From the NCBI GenBank assembly GCA_964187785.1, contig OZ076414.1, positions 6,324,001 through 6,388,000 of the forward strand: a DNA stretch of 64,000 nt, in the 5' to 3' direction. The notes under the pieces were generated by a model. That model did not search any database. It was not told where the DNA came from and saw only the letters and a program-made list of their open reading frames with translations. How positions within the stretch are numbered: the stretch's first letter is position 1; each line of letters starts with the position of its first letter. Below are positions 8,100 through 35,696 of the stretch, piece after piece. This DNA is from Amphiscolops sp. MND2022 (Eukaryota). Made by a program: the position numbers and the translations under genes.

Positions 8100-10300
8100 C
8101 TATACTAAGACAGAGTGAGGTTCAAACAAGTATATGGATTTGAGTAATTTTTGTTCAATTTTTGTTTTGTTTTCTAAAGAAAGAGTTTTTGTTGGGAAGA
8201 ACGAGTTTTTTTGAAAAAAATCAATAACATGAATTGTGGAGAGTGTCAAGGTTTGAATATCACTGCTATGTAGCTGGAGAAGCTTTTGAAGATTGCGATA
8301 CGTGTCGAAAATATAGTTTAGAATGACAAAGGGATCAGTAGTGGGAGAAAGATCAACATGTGGGCGAAGAAGATATAAAATTTCAGTGACAAACTTTCCA
8401 GTTGGACAAGAACGGAGTTGATGCACACCTTAGGATTGACCGTTTGTAGGCCATATGGAGAAGGAGGTCGTTGAATGAAAACAGGCGGAGGTACGGTTGT
8501 CAGTTCAAAATTTTTAGATGATGGAACAGTTTCAGGAAGAGCTTTGTTCTTTCAATCGGGAATATCATTGGTAGCAGGGAAATATTTCTATTGTTTTTTT
8601 CAAAACGAAGTAGAAAGTGTAGCGACTATAAAGTTTAATTGTGCAATGGAGTGTTTATGTACAAGGGAGGTAAAGTTGGAGCAAATGTAGTCATCAAGAG
8701 GAGAATCGACCAGTTTATTCATTTTGCAACACGGGCAGAAAATTGCAACACTATTAGGAACATGAGTGGGTAATAAGAAATCGTCCTTTCAATTTAGAGC
8801 TTCTTGAGGAACAAAAAGAGGACGGGTAGAGTTGTGATACGGAGCGAGGATATAATGATGTTTAACTGGTTCATAACTACGAGGTATGCCATTGGTGTAG
8901 AGATGATTCAAATAGTTGTGAGAATGATAAAAGAAAAGTGACCTGAATTTTTGATTTTGAAAGATAAATTTGGGGTGTTTTTGTTCAAGGAAGTGATGGT
9001 AAGTTTGGTGATGATGTTTTTAACCAGAAGGAGCAGTAGTAATACCGTTTGGGTTAGTGTTAAGTACATATTGAGTTGGTTTTGTGAAAATAAATTGGAA
9101 ATGAGAAAAGTGGATACGTTTGTTTTGCCAAAAGGCGAGATTTTTTTAGTGTTAGGAGGCGTAGGCAACATAATGAACGAAGTTACGATATTGTAGAAAT
9201 CTGAATTTTTATGTGATTGTGATTTCTTAGTGTTATAAATAGAGAAGGAAAATAAGCTTTTAAATTCGCATGAGTGCGGAAGAATTCATCAGTCATAGTA
9301 ATAGTTTGAGAAGGATTTATTACAGGCTGGAGTACAAGAGGTAGATTACTGGAGTCAATGAAAACAGTATTTTCAAGACAAATCTTAGGAGGGACAGTGT
9401 AGGTGACATTATCAATAGTTACTTGACGATTAGTAGGCGGAGGAGTGAGCGAATGACGAGTTTCAAGAATACAAGAGGTGGATTGAGCATGTACAATGGA
9501 AGTATGGGTGGAAGAGGAAGTTTAAATATCACTTATCGTAGGTTCAGGAGTGGAGATGATTTCCAGATAAACTGGAGCAGAATTATGAGAAAGTTCAAGA
9601 GTAAAAAGATGGAGAGAAAGAGGTGGTGACGCAGAGGCAATACTAGAGGGAAGTTTTTACATTGCAAGCAGGTGAAGCCATTTTCAAACAAAGATAGCAG
9701 TTGAAATATTGTGAGAAAACGTATAGTTTACACAATTTTTTTAATGAATTGTATGGAGTGTTATAGTGAAGTTGGACTGTGAAAAGTGAAATTATACAAG
9801 TCAGTCGAAGGGGTTATAGTGGCATGAAGTATAGGTGATCAAAAAATAATAGATCTTTGATAGCAAGACATGTTGAAAATAAAAATAGTACAAAGATGAA
9901 TAAATTTTTTGCGAAATGAATATTTGAGAATTGAAATCGAGTTTGGCGGTAATGAAGGAGCAACTGAGAGATGAAAAAATCTGGAGAAAAGTGATGAAGT
10001 TTACAGAAGAAAGAGACTTAAGTTTATTCAGGTGAAAAGCGACAGGATGAAAAACTAATAACGAGACCTTCGGGTTGATTAAATATACTATTGACAGATG
10101 ATAATGGAAAGTAAATAATTTTCATAGATTGTGGAGTAGGAGGATAATGTTTTGTTGATTGTCATACATTGTGTATGGGCGAATTATTGGAGGATTAGTC
10201 AAAATTAGTGTCATCAGGAGAAATAAAAATATGAAAATAAAAAGGAAAAGACATTGAAGGTATTGGGGATGACGAGGAGAAAGGTTATTAGGAGAGTTGT
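8100..10300 (-). pseudogene. Fourth ORF downstream of env, unknown function (~700 codons, decayed)
   Basis: Chain of minus-strand protein-like segments joined by stops and frameshifts, ending ...PTTDPFVILNYIF...FEPHSVLV at 8100. The start is approximate. Confidence 0.55.
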
Positions 10301-10419
10301 TGTAAGAATTATAAATCGGAGGAGGGTGTGAATTGTTTTCAATTAACTGAGGAGTTGTAGTATAAGGGTAAGATTGAAAACTATTAGTAACGAAGAAGTT
10401 TTCTTGATGAAGACCTTTG

Positions 10420-12703
10420 CATGTTTTTTTTTAGTTTTAAGATTCAAAAATTTGGATTTAAAATTAAGATTATATTCAATATTTTTAGAATGTTTCAACT
10501 TCGGGTTGACAGTATATTTAGAATGAGGAGGCGAAGGTGTATCAGAAGCATTAGAATCAGAATTATAATCAAGAGATTTAATCATAGCAGTCATCAATGT
10601 TTTTGTTACGCTTCCAAAAAATCCGTAGCCAAGAGCATAAATGAGGGAGAATAATTTTTCTTTTAGAATTTTTTTAACTGTGAAAGAGCGATATAAACAA
10701 AGGAAGGTGTTGAAAGCAAACTGTAGGAAGAAAGCAGTGGAAAAAAATTTCACATTAGGTTAAAAAACAACATGGGTAGCCAACGAGTTTATTGAAAGCA
10801 TCGGTGAATCATTCCGGTGTAAGAAAGGGAGTTAAGTTTAACATGTAGTCATGAAAACAGACTTGACGAGAGTTGTAGGGTTCATTTGGGAGGAGTTCAG
10901 ATGATTGTTTACTCATCAATTCATAACTAAGAGCCTTACCAAGAAGTTTTAGGGAATTATCAGAATGTTTGGTCAAGAGAACACAATTCCAAAAATTTTT
11001 GAGATCTCTTTGAGAATAAACTTCTGCATCTCGAGCAGTGAAAGTGTTTGGGCTAATAGCGGTTTGAACTTGAGTGGGTTCAAAGATTAGAGGAGGGTCC
11101 TTTTTATTAGGTTGTGGAGTTGAGACATAATACTGATCGGTGTCAGGGTCAAGAGCAATAACATTATGTGGGTTGGTTTGGCATGGTATTTGATTAGCAT
11201 ATTCAAATGTTTGACGAGTAATAGGGTCAACACACATAACAAAATCAAGGTATTTAACAAGGATTCTGGCATACCATTGTTCAGCTATACATAAAGGAAT
11301 GTGATGGTGAGGACAACCATAAAGCCACGCAGTTGAGCCTTCGACGTAATGAGAATTGTTATAGTTTTGAGTTAAGTGAAAACCAGCGACTTTTGGATTA
11401 TTAACAGATATTGCAAAACTTCACAAATAGCATGGAGGGTGTTAAGTTCCGCAACTGACATTGTTTTGAAAACATGATGAATGAAGAAGTCTATTTTAGT
11501 ATTTATATGAGCTTCACAATCATTAGTGGCAAAATTGTTGAAGGAGTTAAAGCAGGAAAAAGGATTTTATTTTGCGTATGAATTAATTTACCAGAAAATA
11601 ATTGGGTGGAGAGTTGAGTATATGGTTCATCTTCAGGTAATTGAAGGGGGTTACGATTACCAGTATGCGTATTAAATCCTTCTGTATATGTAAAAAAGAG
11701 ATCAGGGTTTTGACTGGTACATAAAGGTGTGGGTTTATTTATTTTACGTCCGAGGAACATTTCGAAACGACTTCAAACGAGTTGAGTTTTAGATTTAGAG
11801 TCATGATAAATAGTTTCAGGAGGAACATTGGTTTTATTGTTATTTGAAAAGTGTTCGTTTTTGAGCCAATAACGGTTATTAACATTAGACATACGTCCAA
11901 TAAAGAAAGAATAAAAGAGTCCTTCGGAGAACCAGACAATGGTGAATGGGATAGAATAGCAGGTTTGAAGAGACCTTAATCATGGCGGCAAGGTAAAGTG
12001 TGTCCATGATAAAATAATTTAATCTCCTTGTCATCATAGGCTAATTCCATATCTCGAACAAATAAAGACCAACTATAGTTTTCAACTATATACTCATGTA
12101 CTCATAGCAGTCCCAACAAACAGCTTTTAAAACAATTTGAGAGTTTGTTTTTTAAGCAAAACCACAATAGTGAAAATTGTTGAGTTTAGTTATACGGGAA
12201 GTTGTTTGGTTTCAAGGAGGCGTCGTTTTTGAATATCATCAAAAGAATTGAAGGAGTTGCTATATTCAAAAGCATTAGATTGAGGATTATCAGTTCCCTT
12301 CTGGTGACGAATAGCATATTTGCATTCCGTTGGGTCCAAAGAACGAGGACGTTCCATTGTATTTTGATGATAATCTGTACGATCATGACGATGGTATTTA
12401 TAACCGGATTGTGCACAACCAAAACTTTTACGTTCAACATAAGCTTCACGGACAAACACTTTAGCAAAAGCACGAGTGCTTTCTAAAGTAGAAGGAGCTT
12501 TAGCACAAGGTTTTACTCGAGTTACACTCAATTAACGGAGGATATGATGTTTAGTGCATTCATAGTGGAAATCCAGTAGGTCAGAAATGTGAGATTCTTT
12601 GGGTTCTACTATATCAGCAGGGGAGTCCAGGGAAATAATGATGAGAGTGAAATATTTCAGAAGGAAGAAAAAAAAGAAAAAGGAGTTTGGATGAATGTTT
12701 CAT
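10420..12703 (-). pseudogene. env: Envelope glycoprotein, probably class III (herpes gB / chuvirus G-like)
   Basis: Signal-peptide-like MKHSSKLLFFFFFLLKYFTLIIIS at 12703. Cys-spaced ectodomain (FHYEC, RVKPC, GCAQSGY, LDPTEC, GSTAWLYGCPH, VDPITRQTFEYANQIPC). Hydrophobic TM region at ~10680-10790. Confidence 0.8.
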
Positions 12704-14599
12704 GAGGAGAATTGTTGCAATTGGGCAGTGTAATTCAAAATGTGAGCATGTTTAAGAAATTAATGAAACCGTGAAGACGGAACGGATGGTGATCACTAAC
12801 GAAAAGACTATGATTAGTAGCAATGAAAGGATGTGGTATGGATTAAAATTGACTGTATTGTGAGACGGACTTATTTGTGGACTTAAGTTGTGAAATTTAA
12901 CAGCGATTTAACGTTTCTTTTCAAGACTTGTAGTATCGAGTCTTGGAAATTCTTTTCGACGACGTCCGTCAGATATTTGAGTATAAGAATGTATTTTATG
13001 AGTTGCAAGATATAAGAATCAAGGATCTTGACGTGGACTAGAAACAAGAGAAATGGGGTATCAGTGGAATCAACACGATTATGTGTAGGTAGGGTAGAAT
13101 ATTGATCAGTGGTAATGTCAATATTCAGGAGGAGGGAATCCGAAAGGAGAACACTGTGAATTGGAGAACTGGGTCGCAAAAACAGCTCTCCGGATTGTTC
13201 ATCAGATGAATTAGAAGAGCGTTGCAAAAAGGCGGAATCAAGACCAGAGGTTTGAATATTTTCGTGAGCCAAAACAGAATCGGATGAACGAGGTTGAGCG
13301 TGGTGTCTCACTAAAGAGGAGTTTTTGCTTGCAAGAAAAGGCGTAGGGCTACGGTTATATCTAAGATTATATCTTCGACGTGGAGGCCTCCCAATAGTAG
13401 ATTCAGAAGAGGCTTCTAAAAGATTATCCAAGGAAGAAATGTTAAACATTATGAAGGTGGAAGAGGAGGACCAGGATCAGAGTGTTTACAGGGTTGTGGA
13501 AGAGGGAGTGGGGGATCAAATTGAGAGTGTCTACGACATCCTTTAATGGAAGTAGGTACTAAGATTGGGTTACGAGATTGAGCTTTGTTAAAATTTCTTA
13601 GGAGTATTGGGTCAATATCACCAGGATCAAGAATATGAGATTGATGTGGGGGAGAAGGAGAATGAGTAGGGACGACATCAAATGGAGTTGAAGGGAATTC
13701 AGTATCAGAGTGTGGAAGAGTTTAAGATGTTTGGGGTTTTAGAATAAAAGGAGTTTTAGTTGGAGTTAGTGTATGAGTACGAGTACGAGTAGTATTTGAA
13801 GAAGGAGTGACAGGACTTGCATTTGAAGGAGGGCGATCTAATATGAGACAAGATGTCTAAGAGGAATTTGTAGTATCAGTAGAAACTATTTAGACAACAG
13901 AAGAACTAGTGTCTGTAGAACTGGAGGATAAAGGAACCGGGGGATCCAGAATGGAAACAAATGTTACGAAAAATATAAATAGATTTTAGCGGCATGCGCA
14001 AGATAAGTATAAGTACAGTTTTAAATAGATAAAGAATTTTTGTTTCAATCGATGGTAGATGTTAAGAGTATATAAAGTTCAGAACAAAAAACGGAGTTTT
14101 TTTCAGCGTTATTTCTTAACCGACTGTTCAATCAAAGATTATGAACAAAATGAACAGAGGATAATTATGGAAATGGGTAAGTAGAGTGTGGATGTCAAAT
14201 GGCAGGCATTTTTATGTGTCTGAACAAAAGACAGTTCATTGATAGTCTGACAGGTAATGCCATTCGGGAGTTAATTTTACATTAAGGGGAGGAACCAGAT
14301 AATGGGCTTTGAGTTATTGTAGTCTTTCGAGGGAAGAGACGTGAAATATATAGCGAATGAAGAGAATATGAGTGGGTAATGTTTGATAGTCTGGTGACGA
14401 TTCAAAGAAAAATTTGGGAAATCAGCAACACGTGGAAAAGTTTGCGGAACGAACTTGGAATGATAAGTAGGATTTTGGAGAGCAGTTCAAAATCAGAGTC
14501 TAAAGAGTTGAAAGTATCATCTAGATTATCATCTAGAGAATTGGAAGGAGGAAGGTTTTGATAGGTAGGAGGAGGATGTAAAATCAATTTGGACTAAGC

Positions 14600-15900
14600 A
14601 CTTGTTTTAAGAGAGGTGTGCGGGCTGAAAGATTTGAAAGGAGGCATACTCAAATTGAGTTGATTTAGAATGAGTATCTTGATAGGAGTCAGTATCAGGA
14701 TTATTGGGAGGAGAGGTAGTTGAGTGATATTGACAGAGAAATGAGAAGATATTCGGTTCTTTGCGATAATATGGTAAAATATGATTGCGGTGTGTGTGAC
14801 ACGTAGAGCCATCTTGGGCCATACGTTCATAAGTAACATCAGATAGTTGTTGAATTTTTTGTATGGGCCAAGTCGGAGGGGTTTAAGTTAAGTTTAGAAT
14901 TTAACATGTTCAAAACTGGATTACAACAGTGTTAAAGTTTCAAATGTGGAGTTTTGTGGATTCAGTTTATTGAATAAATGCCGATGAACGGTGGTGTAGA
15001 GTTCTAACCTTTGCATGTTCACCTGATGAAGCCATGAGGAAATATGTTTGTTGATGGCTGAATGGAAAAAGGGATTGAGATTTTGGTCACTACAATTGGC
15101 ATAAGGTCAAAGTGAATGATCATATGTTGCAATACTTTAAAGTTGAGAGAAAAGGTTAATGGAATACGAGGGTGTGTATGAAAAACATATTGAGATGGAG
15201 AATGTTTAAGTTGAGAAAGGAAGTTGTATTGTCAGAATAGGTGTACATTTGAGTTTGGAATGACCAATTAGTAGGACGAATTTGTAAAAAACTAACGGCG
15301 GTGAGTTTCAAGGCTACGATTTTGGACTTCGAGCAAACCGTTTGTCCAAAAAATTTATGGATTGCGTGGATAGTGACTAAAATTAAAGAGAGAGCAAAGA
15401 TGGGCCATATCTTGATTAGTGTTTTCAGTACCGCAACCAGTGACGAGATACTGGGGTGGTCCAAATTCAGTAATCCAAAGATGGAGTGGTGTTTGAATAG
15501 CATCTTTAGAAGAAATAAGAGGAGAAGGGTTAGTAACACCAAAGTGACTAAAAGCATCAATGATTACAAAAATATAGGAGTTTCCTTGTGAGGAAGGAGG
15601 AAAAGGTCCTTCAGTGTCCATAGAGATTGTACAATTAAAACGGCACTTCCAAAAAATGGTAAAAGAGGAAAATATTAGTTGATTTAATAAGAAAATGATT
15701 ATTCGTTTGGCATTCAATACTATCATGAATGGAAATAGAGAACCATAAAGGTAAATGAGGAATATAATAAAATTGATTGAGAGTTTTAATAGAGAGTTTT
15801 CACCGGAATGACCATGTGAATGAGTTTTATCAAAAGCAGCATAAAAGAGTTTAAATGGCGAACAAATGCGAGTCTGGCAAATAGAGGGTTGAGTTTTTAT
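14600..15900 (-). pseudogene. pol: Integrase of element B
   Basis: ISMDTEGP..YIFVIIDAFSH..FGPPQYLVT core (15355-15726) and C-terminal THRNHILPYY segment; the second catalytic Asp is lost. Confidence 0.88.
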
Positions 15901-16699
15901 TTAAAAAATATCAAAAATTCTGGCGTTGGGTGTATAGTATTGGATAAGATGTGAATTTGTGTCAATATAAAATGTTGGAATTTCTTGTCTCATGTATAAA
16001 GAAAACAGTTAGCTTTATTAACTGGAGCAAAAGGGTATGTTTTTGTTTTTGTTGAAGCCATTTATAAACAGTGGGAAGAACAGGATCATCTCCTTGAGCT
16101 TGAAGGAGAATAGGTATTATTAAAAAGGTATCAGATGGGAAAAAGTATTCAAAAGCTTTGCAATGAGCAATGGATGAATCGAAAAATGGTGAATAGGATG
16201 AATTGAAAAATGGTGAGGTGGAGGTAGATTCAATAAGAGTTTGTAATATGACATGAGTGTGACCAGAATCATCAGAGTTGGGAGATAAGGAGTTAGTGTA
16301 ATATTGATTAGGATATCTCGGGAAAGGTGAGAGTCATTAAAATTTTAGTATTGAATTTCAGAGAGGGGCTGTAAAAAATACGGGATGGTGATTGTAAATT
16401 TTGTTGAAAACTATTTTTAGGAATCATCAACTTCACACAAATCAGTTTCGTGTAAAAGAGAGTTTTGTTGAAGCAATGTTTTGACTTTCTTTCTTATAGG
16501 TTTTTTAATATTTGTTCGAAAAGGATGATCCGGATACAAACAAAAATGAATCTAAAGGAGTGTAGGTGACAGTGTTACATTTATCTTAAATACCAAGCGT
16601 AAATTGATTATCATCGTAATCAACGTCATCAACTAAAATTGGGTGTCAGACATATTTTTGTGTTGGCAAAACTAGATAGTGAGTTTGTATTAACGAGTT

Positions 16700-18757
16700 A
16701 TTGGGTTTGAGTTGAACAAATTCAATATGTGGAGGACGTGTTCTGTGTTGTCAATTGCTCATTGTACTTGTAATTTGGGAAAACTCTTGACTGAGCACAT
16801 CAGCAACAGTTAAATTAGTACCTGCAGTATGAATAATTTGAAGATATTTGATAACATTTGAGCTATACTTCGTCTTGGTGTCAGGTTTCATTTACGGGTA
16901 AAGAGGATTGCATTTGATTATCGGTGTTGGATTGAAATAAAATGGCGCCTAGACCAATAAGAGAGTCGTCAACTATAGAAATGGTGAGTGGTACAGATTG
17001 TATGTTCAGCATCGTTTGAAAGAGAAGTTTCAAGTCCGTGGAAGAGTTTGTCCAATTCACGAGTGCATTCAATTGAAATATATTCATGAAGGAAAACATA
17101 AAGGGGTTGAGTGAGATATGAAGTTTGTTTATAAATTTAGAGTCGAAGTTCATTGAACCTTAAATCGCATTAGTTCTGTTTTAGAAAATGGAGTTTTGAA
17201 TTGGTGAATGCCGTCAACTTTAGAGGAGATGGGTTCAATTGAATTATTGCCAGTTTCATGTCCTAAAAATTTGACAGTAAAAAGAATATATAATAACTTT
17301 TCAGTTGCAATTTTAGAATTGTTGGAACTACGTAATTGGTGCAATTATTTAATTAAATCTAACACATGAGTTTTGATATGAGCAAAAAGAAGGATATCGT
17401 CAACATAAACAAGTGCATTGCCTTGATCAAGGAATTTTTGAAAAAGTGATTCCATTTGTTTCGGAAATAAATTTGGCAGTCCTTTAGGATCATAAAATAC
17501 TCGAAAAAGTTCGTAAAGTTTCGTTCCCGAAGAGAAACTGGAAAGAGAGATGGTTCCGTTATCTAAATCGGCATGTGCATAAGCACACATGAGAGCAATT
17601 GGATATTTGAAGTTTTTGCTAGCGCGTGCAAGTTGGGGAGCTAAAAGTTCAAGTGGCAAGTATCAAAGGATTGATCGGTGTTAGAGTTTAAGTGCCGAGC
17701 GTCAAGGACGACATTAATTGTGTCTCCATTACAAAAATGAAGAGCGGATTTCAAAGGTTGTACCGTAGATCGATTTATCAGAGGGAGTGGAGCCAATTTG
17801 TTTCATAAATTTGTGGTTTTCTATTTCATCTAGTGGCTTTTTAAGTTTCTCTCTATGATGGATAGGGACTTTGGTAAGCCTTTCAGTTTGAGGTTAAGCA
17901 TTTGGTTCGATACTAATTCTAAAAGGAGTGGCCGTTTTACCAACGTCATTACGATGTAGCATAGCAATGTTGGTGTTTAATCAAAATAGCGCAGAGTTTT
18001 TAATGTTCATTATCATTGCCGTCCGAGTATTAAAACTTAAATTTGTTTAAGAGTTGTTGAACTTCTGGAGAGTACTGTAAAGAACGAAGAGGACGGTTTA
18101 AAAGTTGAGAAGGTTTTAGATTATTTATTTCAGTATTAGTTCTTCTAATAGAAGAGCGACGAACAGAAGGTTTTGGTTCTGAGAGATCTGGGTAATATGT
18201 ATGGAATATAGTGTGTATTAAAGAAACAACATCAATAATTTTGTAGTGTGGTGGTTCAATATTAGTGGCAAGAACTTCAATTTAACCTATTTATCCTGGT
18301 GACAAGATAGCTGAATGATGAGTAAATTTTTGAATTATAACAGAGCAGGTCTTCAATTTTGGTATTTTGGTAAACTTGGAGAACGTTAAAGGTGGGGTCA
18401 ACGCGAGTATTAAAATATGGATGTGAAGTTGAGGGAAAGATAATATCATTTTAGGAGGTTGTGAAGGTTAAAGGAAGAGTAGTTTCGATTGGGAAATGAA
18501 TAACTTGAGAAGCGTTGGGTGTTAAAACAGTTTTGTTTTTAACTTTACTTTTGTAAATGTTAGATAAATATGGGTCAGCTTTTTTCGTCTTTTTTAAAGA
18601 GCAGTAAAAGGAAGAGTATTACCATGAGATTCATGAGGGGTATTAAGTGTAAGATACATGTGTTCAATGTTAAGAGCTGTTACATATTTTTCGAAGAAAG
18701 GATTTCCAATTATACTACATTTATTGATTGCAACTGCAATCGGAATTACAAGAGTCC
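16700..18757 (-). pseudogene. pol: Protease end, linker, RT and RNase H of element B
   Basis: RTLVIPIAVA..IIGNPFFEK near 18740; LAPQLARA..YAHA..ALVYVDDILL (17345-17659); DDSLIGLGAILFQ (RNase H). Confidence 0.88.
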
Positions 18758-19010
18758 TGGTGTGAGGATTCCTTTACGAGTGAAGAGCAAACGAATAGGA
18801 TTGTGATATGTGAAAACAGTGCTTGGGTTTCTAGATCCAATGATAATAAATCCAAATAGAGCAAAATTTATAGCACAAAAATCTCGTGCTGTAGAAATTT
18901 GTTGTTCTTGTGTTGTCGAAATACGAGCGTTGAAAGATACAACTTGCATTTTCTTATCCGTGTTGGGTTGAAATAAGATGGTACTGAGACCAATTAGAGT
19001 CACCAGTATT

Positions 19011-22000
19011 ATAAAAAGGATGAGTGGTGTTAGAAATTGCAAGTTCAGCATCTTTTGAGAGAGAAGTTTTAATTTAATTGAAGAGGTTGTCTAATTCAGG
19101 CGTCCACTCAAATGAAACATCATCATCAGAGTAAAAGATCATTGAACCAATAAATCGCATTAGTTCAGGTTTGTAAGTGGAGGATTTCGATTTGTGCATA
19201 CCACCGACTTTAGAGCAGATGGGTTCAACCGTATTATTGTCAGTTTCATGTCCATGAAATTTGACAGTGAGCAGAATATAAAATGATTTTCCGCGGCAAT
19301 TTTTAGATTGTTGGAGCTACATATTTGGTGTATTTGTTCAATTAAATCCAACATATGAAATTTAATATGAGCAAAAAGAAGGATATCGTCAATATAAACA
19401 AGTGCAGAGCCTTGATCATTGAGTTTTTGGAAAAATGAGTACATTTGTTTAGTGAAAAAATTGGAAGTCCTTTAAGACCATAAAATCCTCGAATAAAGGC
19501 GTAAAGTTCATCTCCTGAAGATAAACTAGTAAGAAAAATGGATTCTTTGTCTAATGGGGCATGTGCATAAGCATACATGAGATCAATGGCGGATTTATAT
19601 TTTGTTAGCGCGTGCAAGTTGAGGAGCTTGAGGTTCAGAAGTCCAAGGTTTAACGGATTGATCAGTGTTAGAAGTTAAATGTCGACCATCAAGGTTGACT
19701 TTAATTGTGCCTCCTTTAGGGATAATATTGAGTGGATATAAAAAAGTTTTACCATTTATGGATTTATCAGAGGTAGTGGAGCCAACTTGTCTAATATTTT
19801 TGTGGGTTTCTAATTCAACGAGTAGCTTCTTAAGTTTTTCTCTATACTGAGTACGGACTTTAATAGGTCTTTGAGTTTGAAGTTTAGCATTTGGCTTGAG
19901 GCGAATTCGAAAAGGAGTAGCTATTTTATCACCGTCATCACGATGAGTAGCATAGCAGTGTTGATATTTAACTAAAATGGCGCAGAGTTTTGAATATTGA
20001 TCATCAGTGACATCAAAGTATTGAAATTTAAATTTTTTGAGGATTTGTTGAACATCTGAGGAGTATGGTAAAGAATTAAGAGGAGGGTTTAAAAGTTGAG
20101 AAGGTTGTAGATTATTATTTTTAAAATATTAGATTTTTTGACAGGAGAACAGGGGGTTTTGGGAGAGATCGGGGTAGTATGTGGGAAATATTGTTTGTAT
20201 TGAAGAGTTAACATCATTAACTTTATTGTGTGGTGGTTTAATCTTAGTGGCAGGGACTTCACTATAGCTTATATGTCCTGGTGCGAGGATGGCTGAATAA
20301 TAAGTAATTTTTTGGATTATAACAGATCAACTATTGGGTTCAATTTCAGTGTTTTGGTAGACTTGGAGGATGTTAAAAGTGGAGTTTAGGCGGCTATTGA
20401 AATATGGTTGTGGAGTGGAAGGAAAAACAATTCCAATTTCAGAAGTTGTGAAGGTTCAAGGAGTAGTAGGTTGAATCGAGAGGTGAAAAACTTGAGAAGA
20501 GTTAGGTTTAAAGTATATTTTGTGTTTAACTTTTATTGTATAAATATAAGAAAAATATGGGTAGCATTTTTCTTTATGTGCGGTAATAGGAACAATGTTG
20601 ACATGAGATTCATGAGGTGTATTAAATGTAAGAAACAAGTTGTCAATATTTAGAATTTTAACACATTTTTCAAAGAAGGGAGTTCCAAGTTCATTGATTT
20701 GATACTTGCAACTGCAAGGGGAACTAAAAGAATGAGAGTACTTCCATGGATGGAGGTATGAAGTGTGAGAAAACATTTGAAAAATTTAGCACCTTCAGCG
20801 TTTTTGGCTACTGTTAGGGTTTTAGGCTCATTATTTGGAGGAATGGATGTTGAATATTTGACGAAGTGATCCTGTAATGTTGTGAAGGTGGGTAAAGTTA
20901 AAACACAAATGGAGGCACGCTGTCAAGCAGGAATAAGAGTTCTACCTTAGAGGGCAAAGAGGTGTCTTCTTGTTGTTTGAAAATGTATAGTAATATGTAT
21001 AGTAATATAAAAAGGATGAGTGGAGTTAGAAATTGCCAGTTCAGCATCTTTTGAGAGAGAAGTTTTAATTTAATTGAAGAGGTTGTCTAATTCAGGCGTC
21101 CACTCAAATGAAACATCATCATCAGAGTAAAAGATCATTGAACCAATAAATCGCATTAGTTCAGGTTTGTAAGTGGGGGTTTTCGATTTGTGCATACCAC
21201 CGACTTTAGAGCAGATGGGTTCAACCGTATTATTGTCAATTTCATGTCCATGAAATTTGACAGTGAGCAGAAAATAAAATGATTTTCCGCGGCAATTTTT
21301 AGATTGTTGGAGCTACATATTTGGTGTATTTGTTCAATTAAATCCAACATATGAGTTTTAATATGAGCAAAAAGAAGGATATTGTCAATATAAACAAGTG
21401 CAGAGCCTTGATCATTGAGTTTTTGGAAAAATGAGTACATTTGTTTGGTGAAAAAATTGGTAGTCCTTTAAGACCATAAAAACCTCGAATAAAGGCGTAA
21501 AGTTCATCTCCTGAAGATAAACTAGTAAGAGAAACGGATTCTTCATCTAATGGGGCATGTGCATAAGCTTACATGAGATCAATGGCGGGTTTAAATTTTG
21601 TTAGCGCGTGCAAGTTGAGGAGCTTGAGGTTCAGAAGTCAAAGATTTAACGAGTTGATCAGTGTTAGAAGTTAAATGTCGACCATCAAGGTTGACTTTAA
21701 TTGTGTCTCCTTCAGGGATAATATTGAGGGGATATAAAAAAGTTTTACCATTTATGGATTTATCAGAGGCAGTGGAGCCAACTTATCTAATATTTTTGTG
21801 TTTTTCTAATTCAACGAGTAGCTTCATAAGTTTTTCTTTATACTGAGTACGGACTTTAATAGGTCTTTGAGTTTGAAGTTTAGCATTTGGCTTGAGGCGA
21901 ATTCGAAAAAGAGTAGGTATTTTATCACCATCATCACGATGAGTAGCATAGCAGTGTTGATATTTAACTAAAATGGCGCAGAGTTTTGAATATTCATCAT

Positions 22001-24980
22001 CAGTGACATCAGAGTATTGAAATTTAAATTTTTTGAGGAGTTGTTGAACATCTGAGGAGTATGGTAAAGAAGGAAGAGGACGGTTTAAAAGTTGAGAAGG
22101 TTGTAGATTGTTTTTTTTAATATTAGATTTTTTGACAGGAGAACAGGGGGTTTTGGGAGAGATCGGGGTAGTATCTGGGAAATATGGTTTGTATTGAAGA
22201 GTCAACATCATTAACTTTCTTGTGTGGTGGTTTAATCTTAGTGGCAGGGACTTCACTATAGCCTATATGTCCTGGTGCGAGGATGGCTTATTAGAAGGTA
22301 ATATTTTGGATTATAACAGATCAACTATTGGGTTCAATTTCAGTGTTTTGGTAGACTTGGAGGATGTTAAAAGTGGAGTTTAGGCGGCTGTTGAAATATG
22401 GTTGTAGAGTGGAAGGAAAAACAATTCCAATTTCAGAAGTTGTGAAGGTTCAAGGAATAGTAGGTTGAATCGAGAGGTGAAAAATTTGAGAAGAGTTAGG
22501 TTTAAAGTATAGTTTGTGTTTAACTTTTATTGTATAAATATAAGAAAAATATGGGTAGCATTTTTCTTTATGTGCGGTAAAAGGAACAATGTTGATATGA
22601 GATTCATGAGGTGTATCAATTGTAAGAGACATGTTGTCAATATTTAGAATTTTAACACATTTTTCAAAGAAGGGAGTTCCAAGTTCATTGATTTGATACT
22701 TGCAACTGCGAGGGGAACTAAAAGAATGAGAGTATTTCCATGGATGGAGGTATGAAGTGTGAGAAAACATTTGAAAAATTTAGCGTCTTCAGCATTTTTG
22801 GCTACTGTTAGGGTTTTAAGCTCATTATTTGGAGGAATAGATGTTGAATATTTGACGAAGTGATCCTGTGATGTTGTGAAGGTGGGTAAAGTTAAAACAC
22901 ATATGGAGGCACGCTGTCAAGCAGGAATAAGAGTTCTACCTTAGAGGGCAAAGAGGTGTCTTCTTGTAGTTTGAAAATGTATAGTAATATGTATAGTAAT
23001 ATAAAAAGGATGAGTGGAGTTAGAAATTGCCAGTTCAGCATCTTTTGAGAGAGAAGTTTTAATTTAATTGAAGAGGTTGTCTAATTCAGGCGTCCACTCA
23101 AATGAAACATCATCATCAGAGTAAAAGATCATTGAACCAATAAATCGCATTAGTTCAGGTTTGTAAGTGGGGGTTTTCGATTTGTGCATACCACCGACTT
23201 TAGAGCAGATGGGTTCAACGGTATTATTGTCAATTTCATGTCCATGAAATTTGACAGTGAGCAGAAAATAAAATGATTTTCCGCGGCAATTTTTAGATTG
23301 TTGGAGCTACATATTTGGTGTATTTGTTCAATTAAATCCAACATATGAGTTTTAATATGAGCAAAAAGAAGGATATTGTCAATATAAACAAGTGCAGAGC
23401 CTTGATCATTGAGTTTTTGGAAAAATGAGTACATTTGTTTGGTGAAAAAATTGGTAGTCCTTTAAGACCATAAAATCCTCGAATAAAGGCGTAAAGTTCA
23501 TCTCCTGAAGATAAACTAGTAAGAGAAACGGTTTCTTCATCTAATGGGGCATGTGCATAAGCATACATGAGATCAATGGCGGATTTAAATTTTGTTAGCG
23601 CGTGCAAGTTGAGGAGCTTGAGGTTCAGAAGTCAAAGATTTGACGAGTTGATCAGTGTTAGAAGTTAAATGTCGACCATCAAGGTTGACTTTAATTGTGT
23701 CTCCTTCAGGGATAATATTGAGGGGATATAAAAAAGTTTTACCATTTATGGATTTATCAGAGGCAGTGGAGCCAACTTATCTAATTTTTTTGTGTTTTTC
23801 TATTTCAACGAGTAGCTTCTTAAGTTTTTCTTTATACTGAGTACGGACTTTAATAGGTCTTTGAGTTTGAAGTTTAGCATTTGGCTTGAGGCGAATTCGA
23901 AAAAGAGTAGGTATTTTATCACCGTCATCACGATGAGTAGCATAGCAGTGTTGATATTTAACTAAAATGGCGCAGAGTTTTGAATATTCATCATCAGTGA
24001 CATCAGAGTATTGAAATTTAAATTTTTTGAGGAGTTGTTGAACAACTGAGGAGTATGGTAAAGAAGGAAGAGGACGGTTTAAAAGTTGAGAAGGTTGTAG
24101 ATTGTTTTTTTAATATTAGATTTTTTGACAGGAGAACAGGGGGTTTTGGGAGAGATCGGGGTAGTATCTGGGAAATATGGTTTGTATTGAAGAGTCAACA
24201 TCATTAACTTTCTTGTGTGGTGGTTTAATCTTAGTGGCAGGGACTTCACTATAGCCTATATGTCCTGGTGCGAGGATGGCTTATTAATAGGTAATATTTT
24301 GGATTATAACAGATCAACTATTGGGTTCAATTTCAGTGTTTTGGTAGACTTGGAGGATGTTAAAAGTGGAGTTTAGGCGGTTATTGAAATATGGTTGTAG
24401 AGTGGAAGGAAAAACAATTCCAATTTCAGAAGTTGTGAAGGTTCAAGGAATAGTAGGTTGAATCGAGAGGTGAAAAATTTGAGAAGAGTTAGGTTTAGAA
24501 AATAGTTTGTGTTTAACTTTTATTGTAAAAATATAAGAAAAATATGGGTAGCATTTTTCTTTATGTGCGGCAAAAGGAACAATGTTGATATGAGATTCAT
24601 GAGGTGTATCAATTGTAAGAGACATGTTGTCAATATTTAGAATTTTAACACATTTTTCAAAGAAGGGAGTTCCAAGTTCATTGATTTGATACTTGCAACT
24701 GCGAGGGGAACTAAAAGAATGAGAGTACTTCCATGGATGGAGGTATGAAGTGTGAGAAAACATTTGAAAAATTTAGCGTCTTCAGCATTTTTGGCTACTG
24801 TTAGGGTTTTAAGCTCATTATTTGGAGGAATGGATGTTGAATATTTGACGAAGTGATCCTGTAATGTTGTGAAGGTGGGTAAAGTTAAAACACAAATGGA
24901 GGCACCGCTGTCAAGCAGGAATAAGAGTTCTAGCTTAGAGGGCAAAGAGGTGGCTACTTGTTGTTTGAAAATGTATAGTA
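19011..24980 (-). repeat. Three tandem ~1995-bp copies of the protease-RT segment (19011-20992, 21007-22986, 23001-24980)
   Basis: Homologous ORFs recur at offsets of 1993-1996 bp. Both junctions carry the same (ATGTATAGTAAT)x2 at 20983-21006 and 22977-23000. Confidence 0.97.
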
Positions 24981-24989
24981 CACATTAAC

Positions 24990-27400
24990 AAACCAAGTAG
25001 AAGGAGTTTATTATCATGATTATTTGAAAGAGTGGAGTAATGTAAACAAGAGGGGGTGTTTGGATGGTACATATTTATTTTAAACGTAGATTCAGTGGAG
25101 GAAGGAAAGGTGAATAGGCGGAGTCGGTTCTTGAGTGAGATTAACGAAGGGTTTGTGTTGGTTTTTTGAGTAATTGTTAGAATCAGAGTGAGATCGACTT
25201 CAATAGCGATCAAAATGTGGTTTGGAAGAAGAACGACATGGTGATTTATAGCGTCGAAAAGAGGAGTAATTACAACTTGAGGAGCGTTCACGAGAACGGG
25301 TAAGATTTATATGGGCTTCGAGAGTGAGAACCAGATTAATATCAAGATTCTCGAAAGAAATTGCGGTAGTGGTTAGTGGTTTTTAGTCGGCGCATTTTCC
25401 CTTAAGGAAAAAGCCCGACTATTACAGTGGCTAGTTTTTTTCTTCGTCAGACCACAGAGCTCATCGCGTATGTACCACTTTTTACAGAAACTGATAAGTT
25501 CACTCAGGCCAAGTTCCACCAATGCAAACTTACTGCAAAGGGTTTCCCTTTCGTTTTTTACCTTTTTTACGTAACCTACAAAACCGGAAGACTCCAAAGG
25601 GTCCCCACTTCCAATTTTTTTTGGCACTGTGCGTATTTTTTTTTGAAAAATTTTAATGTCTCAAAAGAGTCCCCCCTTCGGGTTTTTTGATATTTTGCAA
25701 CAGAAAGTATGTTAATGAATCCCAAAGGGTCCCCCTTTTCATTTTTCGGCACTATGCAACGTTTTCGAAGTTTTTTTTTGAAAAAAAATTTCAAAAAAAT
25801 ATTTTTCGGAAAAATTTTCAAAATTTTTGTTTCCATTCGGGAAAAGTAATTTTCCAGTCATATCGAGCATGCAAGGCACACTTTGGGTGTCTCGAAAGTG
25901 TTTTCAAAGCTTTTCATGAATACATCTTGGACATATTTAGAAAACTCTGCGCTTTTTGAGCCTTAGATATAGCGCCGACTTTAGACATTCCCGTCTTGTT
26001 AAATTGAGGTTTAAATGAGGTTTCCATGAGGGACGGAAAAGGAATTGGAGGAAGGGTTTGATGAGTTTGAGAAGTAGAGGGTTGGGTAGTAAGAGTATTT
26101 GGGGGAGGAGGAGTTTTGGAAGGAGGAGTTTTGGAAGGAGTGTTTTATTGGTGTGGTGAGAGTGAAGTTGAAGGTTGAGTAGTGATGAGAGTATTTATAG
26201 AAGGCGGAGGAGGGTGATCAAGGTTTGAAGGAGGATTAACAAAATTGTGGGTAGTTACTAAAACATTAGATGCAGAAAGAATGGTTTGGAGAGAGATATT
26301 AGAAGTAGAAGATACGGTTTGAAGAGAGATATCAGAGTCAGTGTCTAAAGAATTTATTTGAGGAATATGCTTTGCATATGGTCTGACAGGAGGAGGAAGC
26401 TCAAGATTTTTGTCAATACTATGATGATCAGAGGTAAGGTAGGTAAAATCAGTGACTTGGAAGTCACGGAGGTTTTTGAAAAAAGAATTTGATTTTCAGA
26501 AGTAACACTAAAAAGTAGGGATTCATCTTTAGAAAATTGGGAAGGGAAGTTAATGCAAGCGTCTTGGAATTTAGAATCCCAATTAAGTTTGAAGTTGTGT
26601 TTAAAGAGTTTGCGAAGAAACAGAGAGTAGATCGGGATTTGCTCTTTAGTGTGAGTGTTTAAAGTGAGGTTTTGAAACCAAATTGATATTGTAATGGTGC
26701 ATTTGAAGGATATCGGTGGTAAGTCAATGATGAGGTTATTTTTAATAGTGCGAAGCTGTTCAATATTAGGTCCAAAAAGGATTCTTTTTGGAGAAGTGCT
26801 TCGATAGCAGATGGAGTGAAAGCATGTTTAGGTAAAAGGTTGTTCTTTTCGGAAGGTTTTTGAGGAATGTGGTAAAAATATTAGCAATAGGATTATGAAA
26901 ATTGGTAAGGTATATGTTTTTACAGAAGCTATCAGTTGAACAAAGAGGAGAGGTGAAAGGGATAGAAAATTGATGTTCATCAGGAGTTTCCGATAGAGAA
27001 TGAGTCTCAAAATAATAAAGATATGAGTCGAGTTATGTGTAAGATTTTTGAGGAGTTTGGCTGAAACTTGGGTGGTTTCCCGTGAAATGTGAGAATGCGA
27101 CAAATTAATTGCAAAAAGGTGTGGAAGTAATGAAGGAGGGTGGTCAGTCATTATGAATGACGATGAGGACTGAAAACTCGGGAATTACGCTCTAACAGGA
27201 CTTCAGGATCCATACGAGGTTCAGGGGGAGGAGTATGAAAATAAAGATAAACTTTTTGACGGATGTGGTGATAATATGGTAGAAGATGGGAATTAAAATG
27301 TTTGGATGAAAAGAACAAGAACATAGCAATAGGTTTGAGTTGTGGAAAAGCTAGAAAAGTGTTTGGGTGTAAAAGAAAAAGAAACATAAATATATGAATG
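24990..27400 (-). pseudogene. gag: gag region of element A, interrupted by the insert at 25381-26000
   Basis: Lies upstream of the protease; Arg/Ser-rich C-terminal part (SRSPYKSYPFSRERS-like) and PEPRMDPEVLL N-terminal segment; many stops. Confidence 0.6.
25381..26000 (-). mobile_element. Non-autonomous Helentron/HINE (DINE-1-like) element
   Basis: Subterminal inverted repeats AGTCGGCGC (25385-25393) and GCGCCGACT (25972-25980). Stem-loop at 25385-25420 that uses one subTIR. T-run ends, insertion at TT with no TSD, internal AAGGGTCCCC repeats, no coding frame. Confidence 0.7.
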
Positions 27401-27851
27401 GAGAAAGGTTGAGAATCTGATGGAGGTGTGATTAAATAAGGTAGAGGTTAATGATAATACGATTAAGATTTGAAAAATGTAGGAGTTATAGGATGATGGA
27501 AATGAGGGAGAGTTGATGTAAATGTTGGGAATTTAGTTGAAAAGAGAGTGGTTGTTTTTTCAAAAAAAAGCTTGAGAAAAACAAGCTTTGCAAAAATGTA
27601 GGAAACAAAAAGAATTATAGTTGCAAGATTTTCAGTTAGCAACATTGATTATGAGGTGAGAAAGATTTATCAGGGTATGAAATCGATCATTCATTTGTCG
27701 ACGACGAGAAAAAAGGTATACAAGAAGACCAAAAAGATACAACAAAGTCATTGAAATACAAACTGAATCATTTAGAGAAAGCATGAAAATTATATAAAAA
27801 GTTATGAAATGGGTTGAACAAACGGAAATTTTGAACCAAAAGAGAGTTTTT

Positions 27852-28175
27852 GGTTAGTACAAAAAAGGGTGTACCGACTACAATGTCGAATCAAGGAGGT
27901 TATTACTTGAATTGTACCGACAGGAGTCGAACCAACTTGATTAGTACAGAAGATGTGGGCGCACCAGCACGAAGCTGAATCACTCGTGGTCATTAGTACA
28001 GAAAAGGTGAAAGCACCGACTACGAGGTCGAACCACTTTTGCAGAATGCTTAGTACAGAAAAAATATTTGTTTGTATCGACAAATAATCATATCAATTTT
28101 GTGTGATTAGTACCGAAGAATTGATATTTTATACCGACAATAAGTCGAATCATTTGTTTGTGATTAGTACAGAAA
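27852..28175 (-). repeat. Array of ~41-57-bp degenerate units, each with a TTAGTACAGA motif and a short hairpin
   Basis: TTAGTAC at 27854, 27941, 27993, 28050, 28107, 28164; (G/A)YACCGAC-N4-6-GTCGAA-type hairpins at 27871, 27914, 27961, 28013, 28074 (degenerate), 28131. Confidence 0.88.
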
Positions 28176-28249
28176 GAAATCGAAAAGGGAAGGAAAGAAG
28201 GAAGATGCACTGGTCACACCAGTTAAAATACTTGTTTCTTGTTGGAATG

Positions 28250-28960
28250 ATTTTTTTATCTCGGACTTTTTCAGAATCGGAATGCGACGTACTTTAAGAA
28301 GACTCCAACAGAGCTACGGTACTAGGTCTTTAGAAAGTGATGGCAACTTGATGGTGAAGACTTTTCAAGAGTTGTGAACTAGTATAAATCAGATAAGTGC
28401 TTTACAGTATAAGATATGATATTGAGTATAAGATAGATGCATCTAAATTCATGATACATAATTCAAATCTAGACATTCAATAATTGGGTGATGGGTGCTG
28501 TGATCGAACACAATGAGTGATGGGGGTGAATACAATGAGTGATGACTGAATACAAAGTATAGGTATATCAACTAATTGCCGTTTGTTTTGTTCAAGTTTA
28601 AATTGTTACAGAGGATCTTTTTCACCAGGTTTAGTAGAAAGAACACATAATTGATTTGTGTCAGGGTCTGAATCAAAAACATTTTGTGGGTTGTCTTCAT
28701 AGTGAAATTATGTAGCAATATTCGAAAGTGTAAAAACATGATTGGGTCAACGAACACAATTGGGATTCAAAATAAAAATTCGAAAAAAACTCTGGTATTG
28801 GTTGTTATTGTAAGCTTTGCAGACACTTGTAACAAGAGAACACGAATATTTATCATTGTCCGTAATGAGGTTTCCACCACATCTTTGACTAGATAGAGTG
28901 TTAGTTCTTTTAGTTCGTTCGTCTTCTAAAAAATGGGGAGGAATACATTTTCCGGTTTGC
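28250..28960 (-). pseudogene. env: Remnant of a third family member (element C): env fragment joined to 3' region
   Basis: 28570-28960 reads VDPI..TFEY..DNPQNVFDSDPDTNQ..KDP, homologous to env B at ~11090-11240. 28250-28570 is homologous at the DNA level to 7500-7770. Confidence 0.78.
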
Positions 28961-28999: not shown

Positions 29000-30815
29000 T
29001 GATAGGGAAACAACTGTTACTTTAAGTTTTCATCTTTTCACATTTATTCTAGTCGTGGAAGTACATGTCTAGCATATCAATTTTCACTTTGATGTACACT
29101 TTGTCTACCATATTAACCATTAGAGATCCAAGATCTCCTTTGATTTATAACTCCTTCAGACAGTCAATACGCTCTTCATCACCACCAAAGTTATTTTGCC
29201 GGGCCCAATATCTAAACCTCTGTTAGCGTCTTCCTAAGTACTTCATCCTCTCAATCTCTGCCCTAAACATAATCTAACTGAAAAAATGAAACAAAGAACC
29301 TCGTACTTTAACTGGTGCGACCAATTCGTCTTCTCTTCTCTCCGTAACTTTTTTCTTCTCTACTGATCATGTGTTCCAACCTTCTGTCGGTAGAAGTCTT
29401 CTATCTACTTTCCAAAAATTTCGGTTCGATCATGCACTGTCGGTATTACATCTCCATTGCTTTCTCTACTAACCAAAAAGGTTGCCTCGATAACAAATAT
29501 CTGTACATATCTACTCTTCTGAATTGGAAGACGGTTGGATTCTGTTGGTAAATCTTTTTCCGCATTAACTCTATTGTGGTTCGGCATCTTGTTGGTACAT
29601 CCATTCTCCTGTATTAACCATGAAAGTGCTTCGACCTTGTAGTTGGTACATGCATCTTCTGTAAAGAATGAGAAAATGTTTTCTTTACTTCGAAGTTCTT
29701 TGTCGGTACATCGTATGTTTTCTCGATAAATACATCCTTCTAAAACTCTTCTTTGTATTGTAATGATAATTCTTTACACATAACATTTCTATGAACGTTC
29801 TCGTCATCGATAAAAATCTACTGGAAATAATCTGACAAACAATAGGCTATCAGTAGCCGAACATCAATGTTCCTCACTGAAAGAGTTCTAACCATAGTTT
29901 GTTTACTTCCTATATTTTCCTATTACAGTCTTTTTGATGCTTCCCCAATAGAGAAGGTGATTGATTCGTTTCCACTTTGAGTATTCCTTTTTCCGTTTTC
30001 ACAAATCCTTGTTTAGTATCGCTTTTTCAATCCCTTTTTCAAATCATTTCAGAATAAAATCTTTTCAAACGTCGTCACGAGAAGATTGAGAAAAGCTGCA
30101 TATGGAGTCTAAAATGGTTATTTAAACTAGATAGAGTAGGAACTGGATACTTACTAGTAGGAACTGAAGTTTACTAATTGAAATTGTTCGCGAAAGCCTA
30201 ACCGTTAGGCTTTCGCGAACAATTTCAATTAGTAAACTTCAGTTCCTACTAGTAAGTATCCAGTTCCTACTCTATCTAGTTTAAATAACCATTTTAGACC
30301 CTATATGCAGCTCTTCTCAATCTCCTCGAATCTCCTCTATACAAATCTTCCCTATCTATTACAAAACCCCACATACACATGTACATCTTCATATTGATAA
30401 TCAAACTCCATATAAAGTCAACAAACACCTTGTAAACATAGCTGCAACCCATTTGAGCCGAACCCAACCTTTAAATCTACATCATTCTTTCAATTCAGCC
30501 TCTTTTAAACTACCTCAAAACCCAGAGAAACTTTGGAAAGTGCTCTTCAATTGAGTTTCGTCTATTTAGTTTGTGATTCTCTGCTCATTTTTCAAGACAT
30601 GTTTTCTCAGACATCTTTCCACTGCTCAGTCCATTCATTTTTCTTTTCAAACGATGTTCTTTTCTCTTCATCTCAAACTCTCTCGGATAAAATACAATCT
30701 TTCACACCTTCAACGTACAGTGTCAATTTCATTTTCTTCAATTTTTTAAGTTTTTTCTTTAGTTTTTTAAAATCTGATGTGACTTTTTTCAACCCTGATG
30801 TCCTAGCCATCATCA
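29000..30815 (+). mobile_element. Inverted, heavily decayed relative (element D): LTR-like region and possible leader/gag
   Basis: Inverted copy of the hairpin array at ~29350-29715 followed by CTCGTCATCGATA at 29800-29812. The downstream coding identity is unclear. Confidence 0.6.
30078..30328. repeat. 251-bp palindrome (125-bp arms, 1-nt loop at 30203)
   Basis: 30107-30202 is the exact reverse complement of 30204-30299; the outer 29 bp pair with 4 mismatches. AGTAGGAACTG occurs twice per arm. Confidence 0.97.
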
Positions 30816-30941: not shown

Positions 30942-31624
30942 AGTAGTATAGGGGATTGCGGAGATGAGACCAGTTCAGAAAAAAGAATAAATAAAAAAAC
31001 AACGTTCGTTTCACTCACTCTCATTCGCTTCGCTCATTCGTGTTTTTTTATTTATTCTTTTTTCTGAACTGGTCTCATATCCGCAATCCCCGTAATTATT
31101 GTTTTTTTTGCTTGACATTGTTGATGTAATTGTTTTTTTGTTTGATATTGGTGATGTAATTGTTTTTTCACTCGATTATATTTCTATTTTTGAGTAAGTT
31201 TATGTTAATATTTTTAGCGCTGTAGACTTGAAACTAGAATGAAATCTCGAACAAAAACTCGAACAAAAACTCGAATAATATTCTAACTCGAACAAAATTC
31301 AGAATAATAATCTTGATTTCATTCTTCATTCTTTTATTGTATTTTAGCACGTGCGTTTTATTGCTCTCAGCGATGACTTTCAATTTTCTTACTCTAATTG
31401 GCCACTTGAGAAAAAGTTGAACACTTGAATGAGTTTAATTACACCACTTAATATGAAATTTGATACAAACTTTTTTCAGGGATAACTATGAGGAGTTGAA
31501 TGTTGTAGTTTTTGTAGATATGTTTGTCTTGATGAGAGGATTAAAACGAAATGTCGATGGTTAAAATCGGTTCTTTAGATGTGAAAATAACAAAGTGAAG
31601 AACAAATGTTTTTGAAAATGTTCT
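30942..31624 (+). repeat. Left terminal inverted repeat (~683 bp)
   Basis: Reverse complement of 46763-47446 with a few substitutions and indels; contains a 50-bp-stem hairpin and CTCGAACAAAA repeats. Confidence 0.96.
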
Positions 31625-31689
31625 ACCTCGAACAAAATTTTTTTGAAAGTGTTCTAACTTGAACAAAAACTCGAATAATATTTTGATAT

Positions 31690-32355
31690 TCATTCTTGAT
31701 ATCGTTCTTCATAATTTACAAACCTCAGAGTCCAATATAATCTTCGATCTTCTTCAATTAAAGCTTCTCGAATATCTCTTTCGATAGATTTTACAGCTGT
31801 ATTAATAATATGTTCATCTTTTCGTAATTCATCTGACAAATCAAATATCAATATTCCTTGCATTTTAACCACTTCAATATTCAATTCTTTATCATTTTGT
31901 AATCTTTCTGAAGCATTAAATAATGTTAAGGGGTCATTTTTTATTGAAGCTAAAACAATTTCTTTATCATCTTTTAATTCATCAGAAGCATATTGTAAAG
32001 CATATTCATTTATTTTAACTAAGTCCATCATTAAATTTCTATTGAAAATAACAAAATCACCAGGTTGTGTTGTTTCTAAGTATAAAATTTTATCATAAAA
32101 TTCAACAATATTTCCATTTAATGTGAAAGTAAAATTACTTCTTTCATAATCTTCTTCGATATTACCTTCAAAACTATTTAAGCACTTATCATTTTTATCA
32201 CAAGGTTTTACAAACTCAATAAGAGTTCTATTAATAGGGGAGGTAGCATTATTTTTCATCCATCCTTGTAAACATTTTTCTTCATACATATACCCATCAC
32301 TACACATAACTGGATGTCTAATTCCGATTTGATTGATTGGACAAAGTGGATTCTT
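31690..32355 (-). pseudogene. U-box plus DUF4116-like repeat protein (putative viral E3 ligase); start codon apparently ATG to AAG
   Basis: The in-frame N-terminus reads NPLCPINQIGIRHPVMCSDGYMYEEKCLQGWMKNNATSPINR, which fits the U-box pattern. The C-terminus has ALQYASDELKDDKEIVL-type repeats. Confidence 0.78.
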
Positions 32356-32390
32356 TTATTAGGTTTATTTTATTTGAATTGTTATTTGAA

Positions 32391-35300: not shown

Positions 35301-35510
35301 GTTAGTTTTCTTTTTGTTTCCGTTTATTGTCATTTCACCAACGAGTTCAAATCCACGGTTTCCATTATTTAATTTATCTCGTATTTCAAAAACATTTAAT
35401 CCTTTAATGTTTGATCTATCGGCTTCAGCTAATTCAAAGAATCTACCGACATCAATTTCATCATCATCATGAGATTGCTTCTTTGAGTTTTGTTCCTTAG
35501 CTTGTCTCAT
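32391..35510 (-). pseudogene. polB: Protein-primed family B DNA polymerase (pPolB) with N-terminal extension, frameshifted
   Basis: Exo motifs YDIET (~34700), AHNGSGFD and YLRMDI; polymerase motifs AFDATSLYPSAM, KLIMNSIYG and YQDTDSLY. Confidence 0.96.
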
Positions 35511-35696
35511 TTATTAGGAAACAGTTACTTGAAATGATTTTCACTTTTTTAACAAAAAGAGTTTAACAATTTTTCATCCCTAAACAGATACACTTCATAA
35601 CCTTTTGAATCTGGATAATCGAAATTAAAGTTTGTGCTATTAACAAGTTCAACAAAACTATCACAAAGAGGCGTAGTAAAAATTACATATCCACCA

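Follow-up and report, generated by a model that had tools for sequence, protein, structure and literature searches.

Organisation of the locus

The analysed stretch of DNA (64,000 nucleotides, hereafter the window) is repeat-rich and probably of animal origin. Judging by its sequence, the tandem array described here is part of a minus-strand Ty3/gypsy element (element A) that bears an env and has decayed, and in which gag, PR-RT-RH-IN and env follow one another between two LTRs. The 3′ part of the 5′ LTR (~28220..28490, minus strand) ends in TAACT and is 78% identical over 275 nt with the aligned part of the 3′ LTR (~7461..7729, minus strand), which ends in TAATT, and the alignment of the two stretches stops at this common TAAYT terminus. 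In passages of PMC3601003, TAAYT is the 3′ terminus of ZAM-type LTRs, whose full termini read AGTTAYRK...TAAYT. LTR 5′ ends and a target-site duplication were sought as well, and none could be placed. A primer-binding-site-like TGG stretch (28210..28221, minus strand) overlaps the LTR end; the seven supplementary files of PMC13524379 contained no match to it. Just upstream of the 5′ LTR, a short env remnant (28612-28698, minus strand) suggests nested or tandem copies.

The leader of element A measures ~1,070 nt and contains 12 upstream ATGs in this copy. The decayed 5′ part of gag (26148..27151, minus strand) was located by tblastn with three relatives (P0119, P0126, and P0136), and its start codon probably lies at 27151, given the N-termini of intact relatives; no match was obtained in the element A copy for the relatives' Gag residues ~360-840, which include the capsid and the zinc knuckle. 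The decayed end of gag and pol (PR-RT-RH-IN) extend over 14286..25301 (minus strand), with the PR-RT part repeated in tandem: three 1,994-bp copies at 96-97% and a fourth at ~75% occupy 16908-24980, either through duplication or as an assembly effect. Four intact relatives (P0119, P0126, P0136, and P0150) have a single Gag-Pol frame of 2.6-2.7 kaa, with ~500-640 residues preceding the capsid domain, and the Gag of the intact relatives carries one C-x2-C-x4-H-x4-C knuckle followed by a long basic stretch rich in Arg, Ser, and Tyr. The protein clusters of the family have 285-1183 members.

The decayed env (10027..12663, minus strand) contains a Monjiviricetes-type fusion domain. PF24664 (Monjiviricetes_fusion) was its sole match among the Pfam profiles; by this assignment it is neither of the F type nor of the herpes gB type, the types of errantivirus env given in the survey PMC13524379. 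Env relatives number 55, in clusters of up to 1,758 members, and our literature search found no description of a Monjiviricetes-type env in Ty3/gypsy elements; on this domain assignment, Ty3/gypsy elements may have in the Monjiviricetes (rhabdovirus-like) env a third type of env. A conserved orphan frame in pieces (ORF4; 8124..9049, minus strand) follows between env and the 3′ LTR, with relatives of up to 337 aa. A further piece assigned to it (9186-9521) had no relatives, and P0226 had no usable match in Atlas.

A second element (element B) lies on the plus strand, head to head with element A. The 3′ part of its LTR together with a primer-site-like stretch spans 29068..29324 (plus strand, start approximate), and its LTR end, TAACT, is at 29313, so that TAAYT is present at all three LTR 3′ ends (5′ and 3′ LTRs of element A, and the LTR of element B). 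The LTR end and primer-site-like stretch of the two elements align with a local score of 113, against a shuffle maximum of 56, and the primer-site-like stretch is conserved in both. A leader block is also shared (27593..27649, minus strand, in element A), with 75% identity over 57 nt with 29863-29918 (E 8e-5). The gag of element B was looked for and was not found. In both elements, the LTR end and the primer-site-like stretch could form a short hairpin (28210-28224, minus strand; 29310-29324, plus strand), and the end of the element B leader (30078-30328) is a 251-bp near-perfect palindrome (96%), likely a foldback insertion.

Tandem arrays in the 5′ leaders

Array A consists of seven units on the minus strand, in element order A1 (28131..28170), A2 (28074..28113), A3 (28013..28056), A4 (27961..27999), A5 (27914..27947), A6 (27871..27906), and A7 (27816..27860), with start-to-start spacings of 57, 57, 57, 52, 41, and 46 nt and a TRF period of 57 nt. 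Measured from the 5′ LTR end and the primer-site-like TGG, it extends from 50 to 410 nt in the 3′ direction, and ~650 nt separate its 3′ end from the start of gag. In LTR elements, the 5′ leader is necessarily part of the reverse-transcribed RNA. As the array lies between the LTR end with its primer site and gag, it is inside the genomic RNA, and it is a component of the 5′ leader outside the LTR. The first-pass annotation had placed it ~150 bp from the putative LTR terminus and had proposed to locate it within U3/R/U5; the actual distance from the LTR end (28221) is ~50 nt, the array belongs to the leader instead, and the concern that it might fall outside the transcript is therefore removed.

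The pattern TTAGTACMGA occurs five times in the window, always within the array (shuffle mean 0.24; 0/100 shuffles reach 5), and TTCGAC-N3-7-GTYGGT also five times, four in array A and one in the sister array of element B (shuffle mean 0.04). Since both patterns were derived from the array itself, these counts demonstrate clustering and not an independent discovery. The annotated regular repeat of units 41-57 bp apart is real and not due to chance, although the number of units is seven and not six. Between 27000 and 30500, the Rfam 15 covariance models gave 14 matches at E<=5; none of these overlapped array A, none attained the gathering score of its family, and ARAGORN predicted no tRNA in the array. 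A GGTTCGA resembling a tRNA T-arm is retained in one unit only and was dismissed as a chance likeness.

Array B (29360..29709, plus strand) occupies the same leader position in element B and is made of seven more-diverged units: B1 (29360-29393), B2 (29405-29446), B3 (29466-29506), B4 (29511-29551), B5 (29562-29598), B6 (29611-29649), and B7 (29661-29709).

Unit anatomy and predicted fold

Read in the sense of the element, each unit comprises three conserved, mutually complementary blocks with variable loops between them. The first block can pair both with the beginning of block two (P2, 5 bp) and with the last part of block three (P1, 4 bp); a further helix joins the last part of block two to the beginning of block three (P3, 4 bp). 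The stem annotated previously in each unit is P3; this helix holds, yet it is only one of three complementary helices, and the conserved unit is probably larger than one hairpin. A single unpaired U at the junction is kept in 13/14 units, and no columns are better kept than this U and the A residues on its flanks. Among A units, identity is 76% at stem positions and 31% and 42% in the two loops, and the spacers between blocks are 3 to 12 nt and 4 to 6 nt long.

All 13 pairs can form in A1, for which the three-way junction is also the minimum-energy fold, and in A5, followed by A3 and A4 (12/13 each), A2 (11/13, including two U-G pairs in P3), A6 (10/13; first block degenerate, P3 intact), and A7 (10/13 in the MAFFT register; all of P2 pairs, with a C-G swap, and the register of P3 is uncertain by one base). 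The CAGC/GCTG swap reported earlier for P3 of A4 (27965-27977) is indeed in the sequence and yields two doubly changed pairs. The U-G closing pair, said to form only on the minus strand, is present too, but it is weak strand evidence on its own because in the three-helix model each of its bases pairs elsewhere.

RNAalifold, run on an automatic alignment of 13/14 A and B units, chose P3 unprompted. In A, 89% of 91 cells are paired under the three-helix structure (21/500 shuffles reach this; slid partners pair at 21-44%), as are 79% of 169 cells in 13/14 A and B units, two of them misaligned (7/500 shuffles), with the caveat that counts of this size can arise among related sequences that have no structure. 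When the register is left free, shuffled units frequently attain 11-12/13 pairs and, in 1/420 shuffles, 13; A1 and A5 reach 13. For isolated A units, the junction was the minimum-energy fold in 1/7 (A1) and z-scores were mostly weak. In the context of the array, ViennaRNA assigned P3 a probability of 0.76-0.99 in 4/7 A units, P1 a probability of <=0.03 in 7/7, and P2 one of >0.1 only in A7; in the five B units computed at 37 °C, no P3 exceeded 0.3. Pairing in array A is about equally frequent within a unit or with its next neighbour, both for P1 (25/28 within, 22/24 between) and for P2 (30/35 within, 25/30 between), hence the same junction could form in several registers. We consider it very likely that the P3 hairpin folds as RNA, and we lean only slightly towards the full three-way junction doing so.

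Covariation and comparison of the two arrays

Structure and sequence models were built from the A units only and applied to array B. The structure model recovered B6 (E 7e-6), B1 (0.015), B7 (0.4), B5 (1.6), and B3 (4.2), with 26 matches in total up to E 10, and the sequence-only model, with 44 matches in total, recovered B6 (4e-7), B5 (0.001), and B3, B1, and B7 (near 0.9). Adding structure improved the scores of B1 and B7 and worsened those of B3, B5, and B6. A lone match of the unit model at 48677-48729 (plus strand, E 0.13) has no neighbouring units and was taken as chance.

Pairing was compared with simulations of random substitution in which the change count of each unit and the observed transition share were fixed, using the less favourable register for A7 and B4 and registers set by hand for B2, B3, and B7; the resulting p values assume that units are independent. 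Pairs form in 81/91 cells of A against 76 expected (p 0.043), in 71/91 of B against 61 (p 0.004), and in 152/182 of both together against 137 (p 0.0006), and doubly changed pairs number 11 in A and B, where 4.3 are expected (p 0.0008). None of the single helices in A is significant alone. B1, a unit unused in defining the structure, shows double changes in P1 as well as in P2. When the antisense strand is scored, with A-C counted in place of G-U, 141 cells pair against 137 expected (p 0.21); the pairing excess is above chance on the sense strand only.

The covariation claimed for the units in the first-pass annotation is favoured by the pooled value but comes near chance once shared changes are collapsed, with 11/31 single-side and 7/13 double types pairing. 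Variants shared by several units make up 7/18 of the pairing and 4/26 of the non-pairing types (p 0.08), and G-U outnumbers A-C by 18 to 7 cells (p 0.02) or by 11 to 7 distinct types (p 0.24). Assuming that both LTRs date a single insertion, most of the broken pairs would be explained by decay of ~11% per site alone. The leader position, the sense-only excess, and the second array speak for the earlier suggestion of an RNA structure in the sense transcript, while folding in context supports P2 only in A7 and P1 in no unit. We regard the array as a real, selected, and probably RNA-level element of the leader.

Proposed role and comparison with known systems

We tentatively propose, as a possibility that we place somewhat short of probable, that array A is a seven-fold cis-element of the 5′ leader whose folded units bind the element's own Gag and select the RNA for packaging. 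The units would fold in the genomic RNA as a stable hairpin within a predicted labile three-way junction, the seven folded units would offer several binding sites for Gag, and binding there would lead to the selection of genomic RNA for packaging. A pyrimidine-rich YYYG on the weak outer side of P1 is a candidate contact, which the single zinc knuckle could read; in 5/7 A units and 3/7 B units, YYYG ends at the outer P1 pair. Gag as the partner and packaging as the role are suggested by position, multiplicity, and analogy.

One parallel is retroviral Psi (HIV-1, MoMuLV), which occupies the part of the genomic RNA just 3′ of the primer site, ahead of gag, where the array is also found, and likewise offers several sites. 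HIV-1's core encapsidation signal is described in sections of PMC7395439 as a tandem three-way junction bound first at a labile helix; three-way junctions with weak helices are common to HIV-1 Psi and the fold predicted here, and in MoMuLV a single zinc knuckle binds repeated UCUG (passages of PMC7599994). In contrast, each retroviral Psi signal is one fold without repeats, tied to dimerisation hairpins, whereas the array repeats a 35-50-nt module seven times, has no conserved palindromic loop, and is given its role here by inference. In Ty1 and in Ty3, the latter of the same Ty3/gypsy class, packaging and priming signals are also near the RNA 5′ end (parts of PMC4974528 and PMC11381356), those for Ty1 packaging within the first 580 nt (PMC4974528). 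Unlike the array, they involve a pseudoknot together with palindromes for dimerisation, lying partly within GAG, and the same parts of these sources, which mention no tandem module, describe the Gag sites as not precisely defined (PMC4974528). It is rather doubtful, but conceivable, that the array exemplifies a modular packaging signal of this Ty3/gypsy clade with its rhabdovirus-like envelope, used by no described retroelement, in which a three-way-junction module repeated seven times would serve to nucleate Gag on a platform that tolerates shifts of register; with its three strands recurring in a fixed order, one and the same junction could arise along the leader in any of three registers.

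Selection of their own RNA by Ty3/gypsy elements is poorly defined according to passages of PMC4974528. If the proposed role is true, the 40-nt module, of which natural variants exist among the family's hundreds of copies, would constitute a compact, directly testable Gag-recognition unit, and this would further suggest that certain errantivirus-like 5′ UTR repeats, read so far as DNA insulators or enhancers, act as RNA.

Alternative explanations

The same repeats could be sites for a host protein. Under one such reading, which we judge unlikely, the units bind a STAR or branch-point-type protein (QKI, SF1, GLD-1, HOW) that governs how the full-length RNA is spliced, exported, or translated, with the fold gating access. 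ACUAA is the QKI/SF1 motif (PMC13004596), and ACUAAY occurs five times in 376 nt of array A (in five A units) and AYUAAY three times in array B, each motif being preceded by a pyrimidine tract; the conservation of the junction U and flanking A residues would also fit. Four of the seven B units lack AYUAAY, the motif spans P1 and P2, and the conservation and covariation of P3 are left without explanation. STAR proteins read single-stranded RNA, which is at odds with a motif placed in two helices. A somewhat less probable version has the array acting as DNA, its repeats binding a host chromatin protein to form an insulator or enhancer of the kind present in the gypsy, ZAM, and Idefix 5′ UTRs. 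Passages on Drosophila errantiviruses (gypsy, ZAM, Idefix, gtwin) describe ~350-bp degenerate 5′ UTR repeats, env, and TAAYT LTR ends, all of which resemble the present element. Array A matches the position and size both of the gypsy insulator, a 340-bp segment of the 5′ UTR containing 12 Su(Hw) motifs (parts of PMC3383448), and of the tandem repeats in the ZAM 5′ UTR (parts of PMC8872304), and multiple motif copies in a 5′ UTR, characteristic of a gypsy-type insulator, are found here as well, with a first block nearly invariant over ~14 bp in 5/7 A units. The errantivirus repeats are described in these passages as DNA-binding sites, whereas the array has blocks complementary across variable spacers, an excess of doubly changed pairs, and a strand-specific excess of pairing, none of which is predicted by a site in duplex DNA.

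A structured translation element (IRES or shunt) carrying ribosomes past the long leader to gag seems improbable to us: the length of the leader and its upstream ATGs make room for such a device, and parts of PMC3383448 report IRES sequences in some errantiviruses, but the array stops ~650 nt before gag, the upstream ATGs may be products of decay, and an IRES requires nothing repeated. Another alternative is the one offered in the first-pass annotation as a refutation, a neutral minisatellite, here of a chance palindromic unit whose apparent compensation came from template switching between arms. Three of the six spacings are exactly 57 nt, as is the TRF period, and both the near-chance collapsed covariation and the shuffled units reaching 11-12/13 pairs in a free register accord with it. 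Homogenisation would not be expected to keep the blocks while the loops drift to near-random identity, the array recurs at the same place in an element with an only distantly related LTR, and copying between arms would not favour G-U pairs, so we find this explanation poorly supported and very improbable. Recruitment of the ORF4 product, in the manner of RRE/Rev or TAR/Tat, had also been suggested. Multivalent structured RNAs are typical of these systems, and HIV RRE and TAR are structured cis-RNAs carried on the transcript of a retroelement that has an accessory frame close by, a setting shared by the array, ORF4 being a conserved extra frame of the family with 44 relatives. Yet the five ORF4 relatives examined contain 7-8% Arg+Lys and no arginine-rich stretch, none of seven scanned against Pfam reaches a family cut-off, the family's basic RNA-binding region sits in Gag, and the array is located neither at the transcript start nor in env, as RRE and TAR are; such a target is unsupported, and we hold it to be extremely improbable.

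Other copies and neighbouring elements

No viral or metagenome contig matched the unit pattern. The LTR-end pattern had 0 in genome contigs and nine in viral contigs, none of them with a unit-model match below E 1.5, and protein scans found none in viral or genome contigs and two metagenome loci, one of which is a 1,067-nt integrase piece without leader. As no third array appeared in these collection scans, the evidence comes from 14 units in two decayed elements. A literature search confined to papers free of subscription, bioRxiv supplements excluded, returned no description of such an array, and the words 'UTR', 'packaging', and 'RNA structure' gave no hits in the main text of the env-element survey PMC13524379.

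Elsewhere in the window, positions 30942-47446 hold a Polinton/Maverick with ~685-bp terminal inverted repeats at 98%, which encodes polymerase B, an integrase, a double-jelly-roll capsid protein, an A32 ATPase, and a U-box + DUF4116 gene product, and 58661-60750 and 61914-64000 form a 99% identical tandem duplication inside another retrotransposon.
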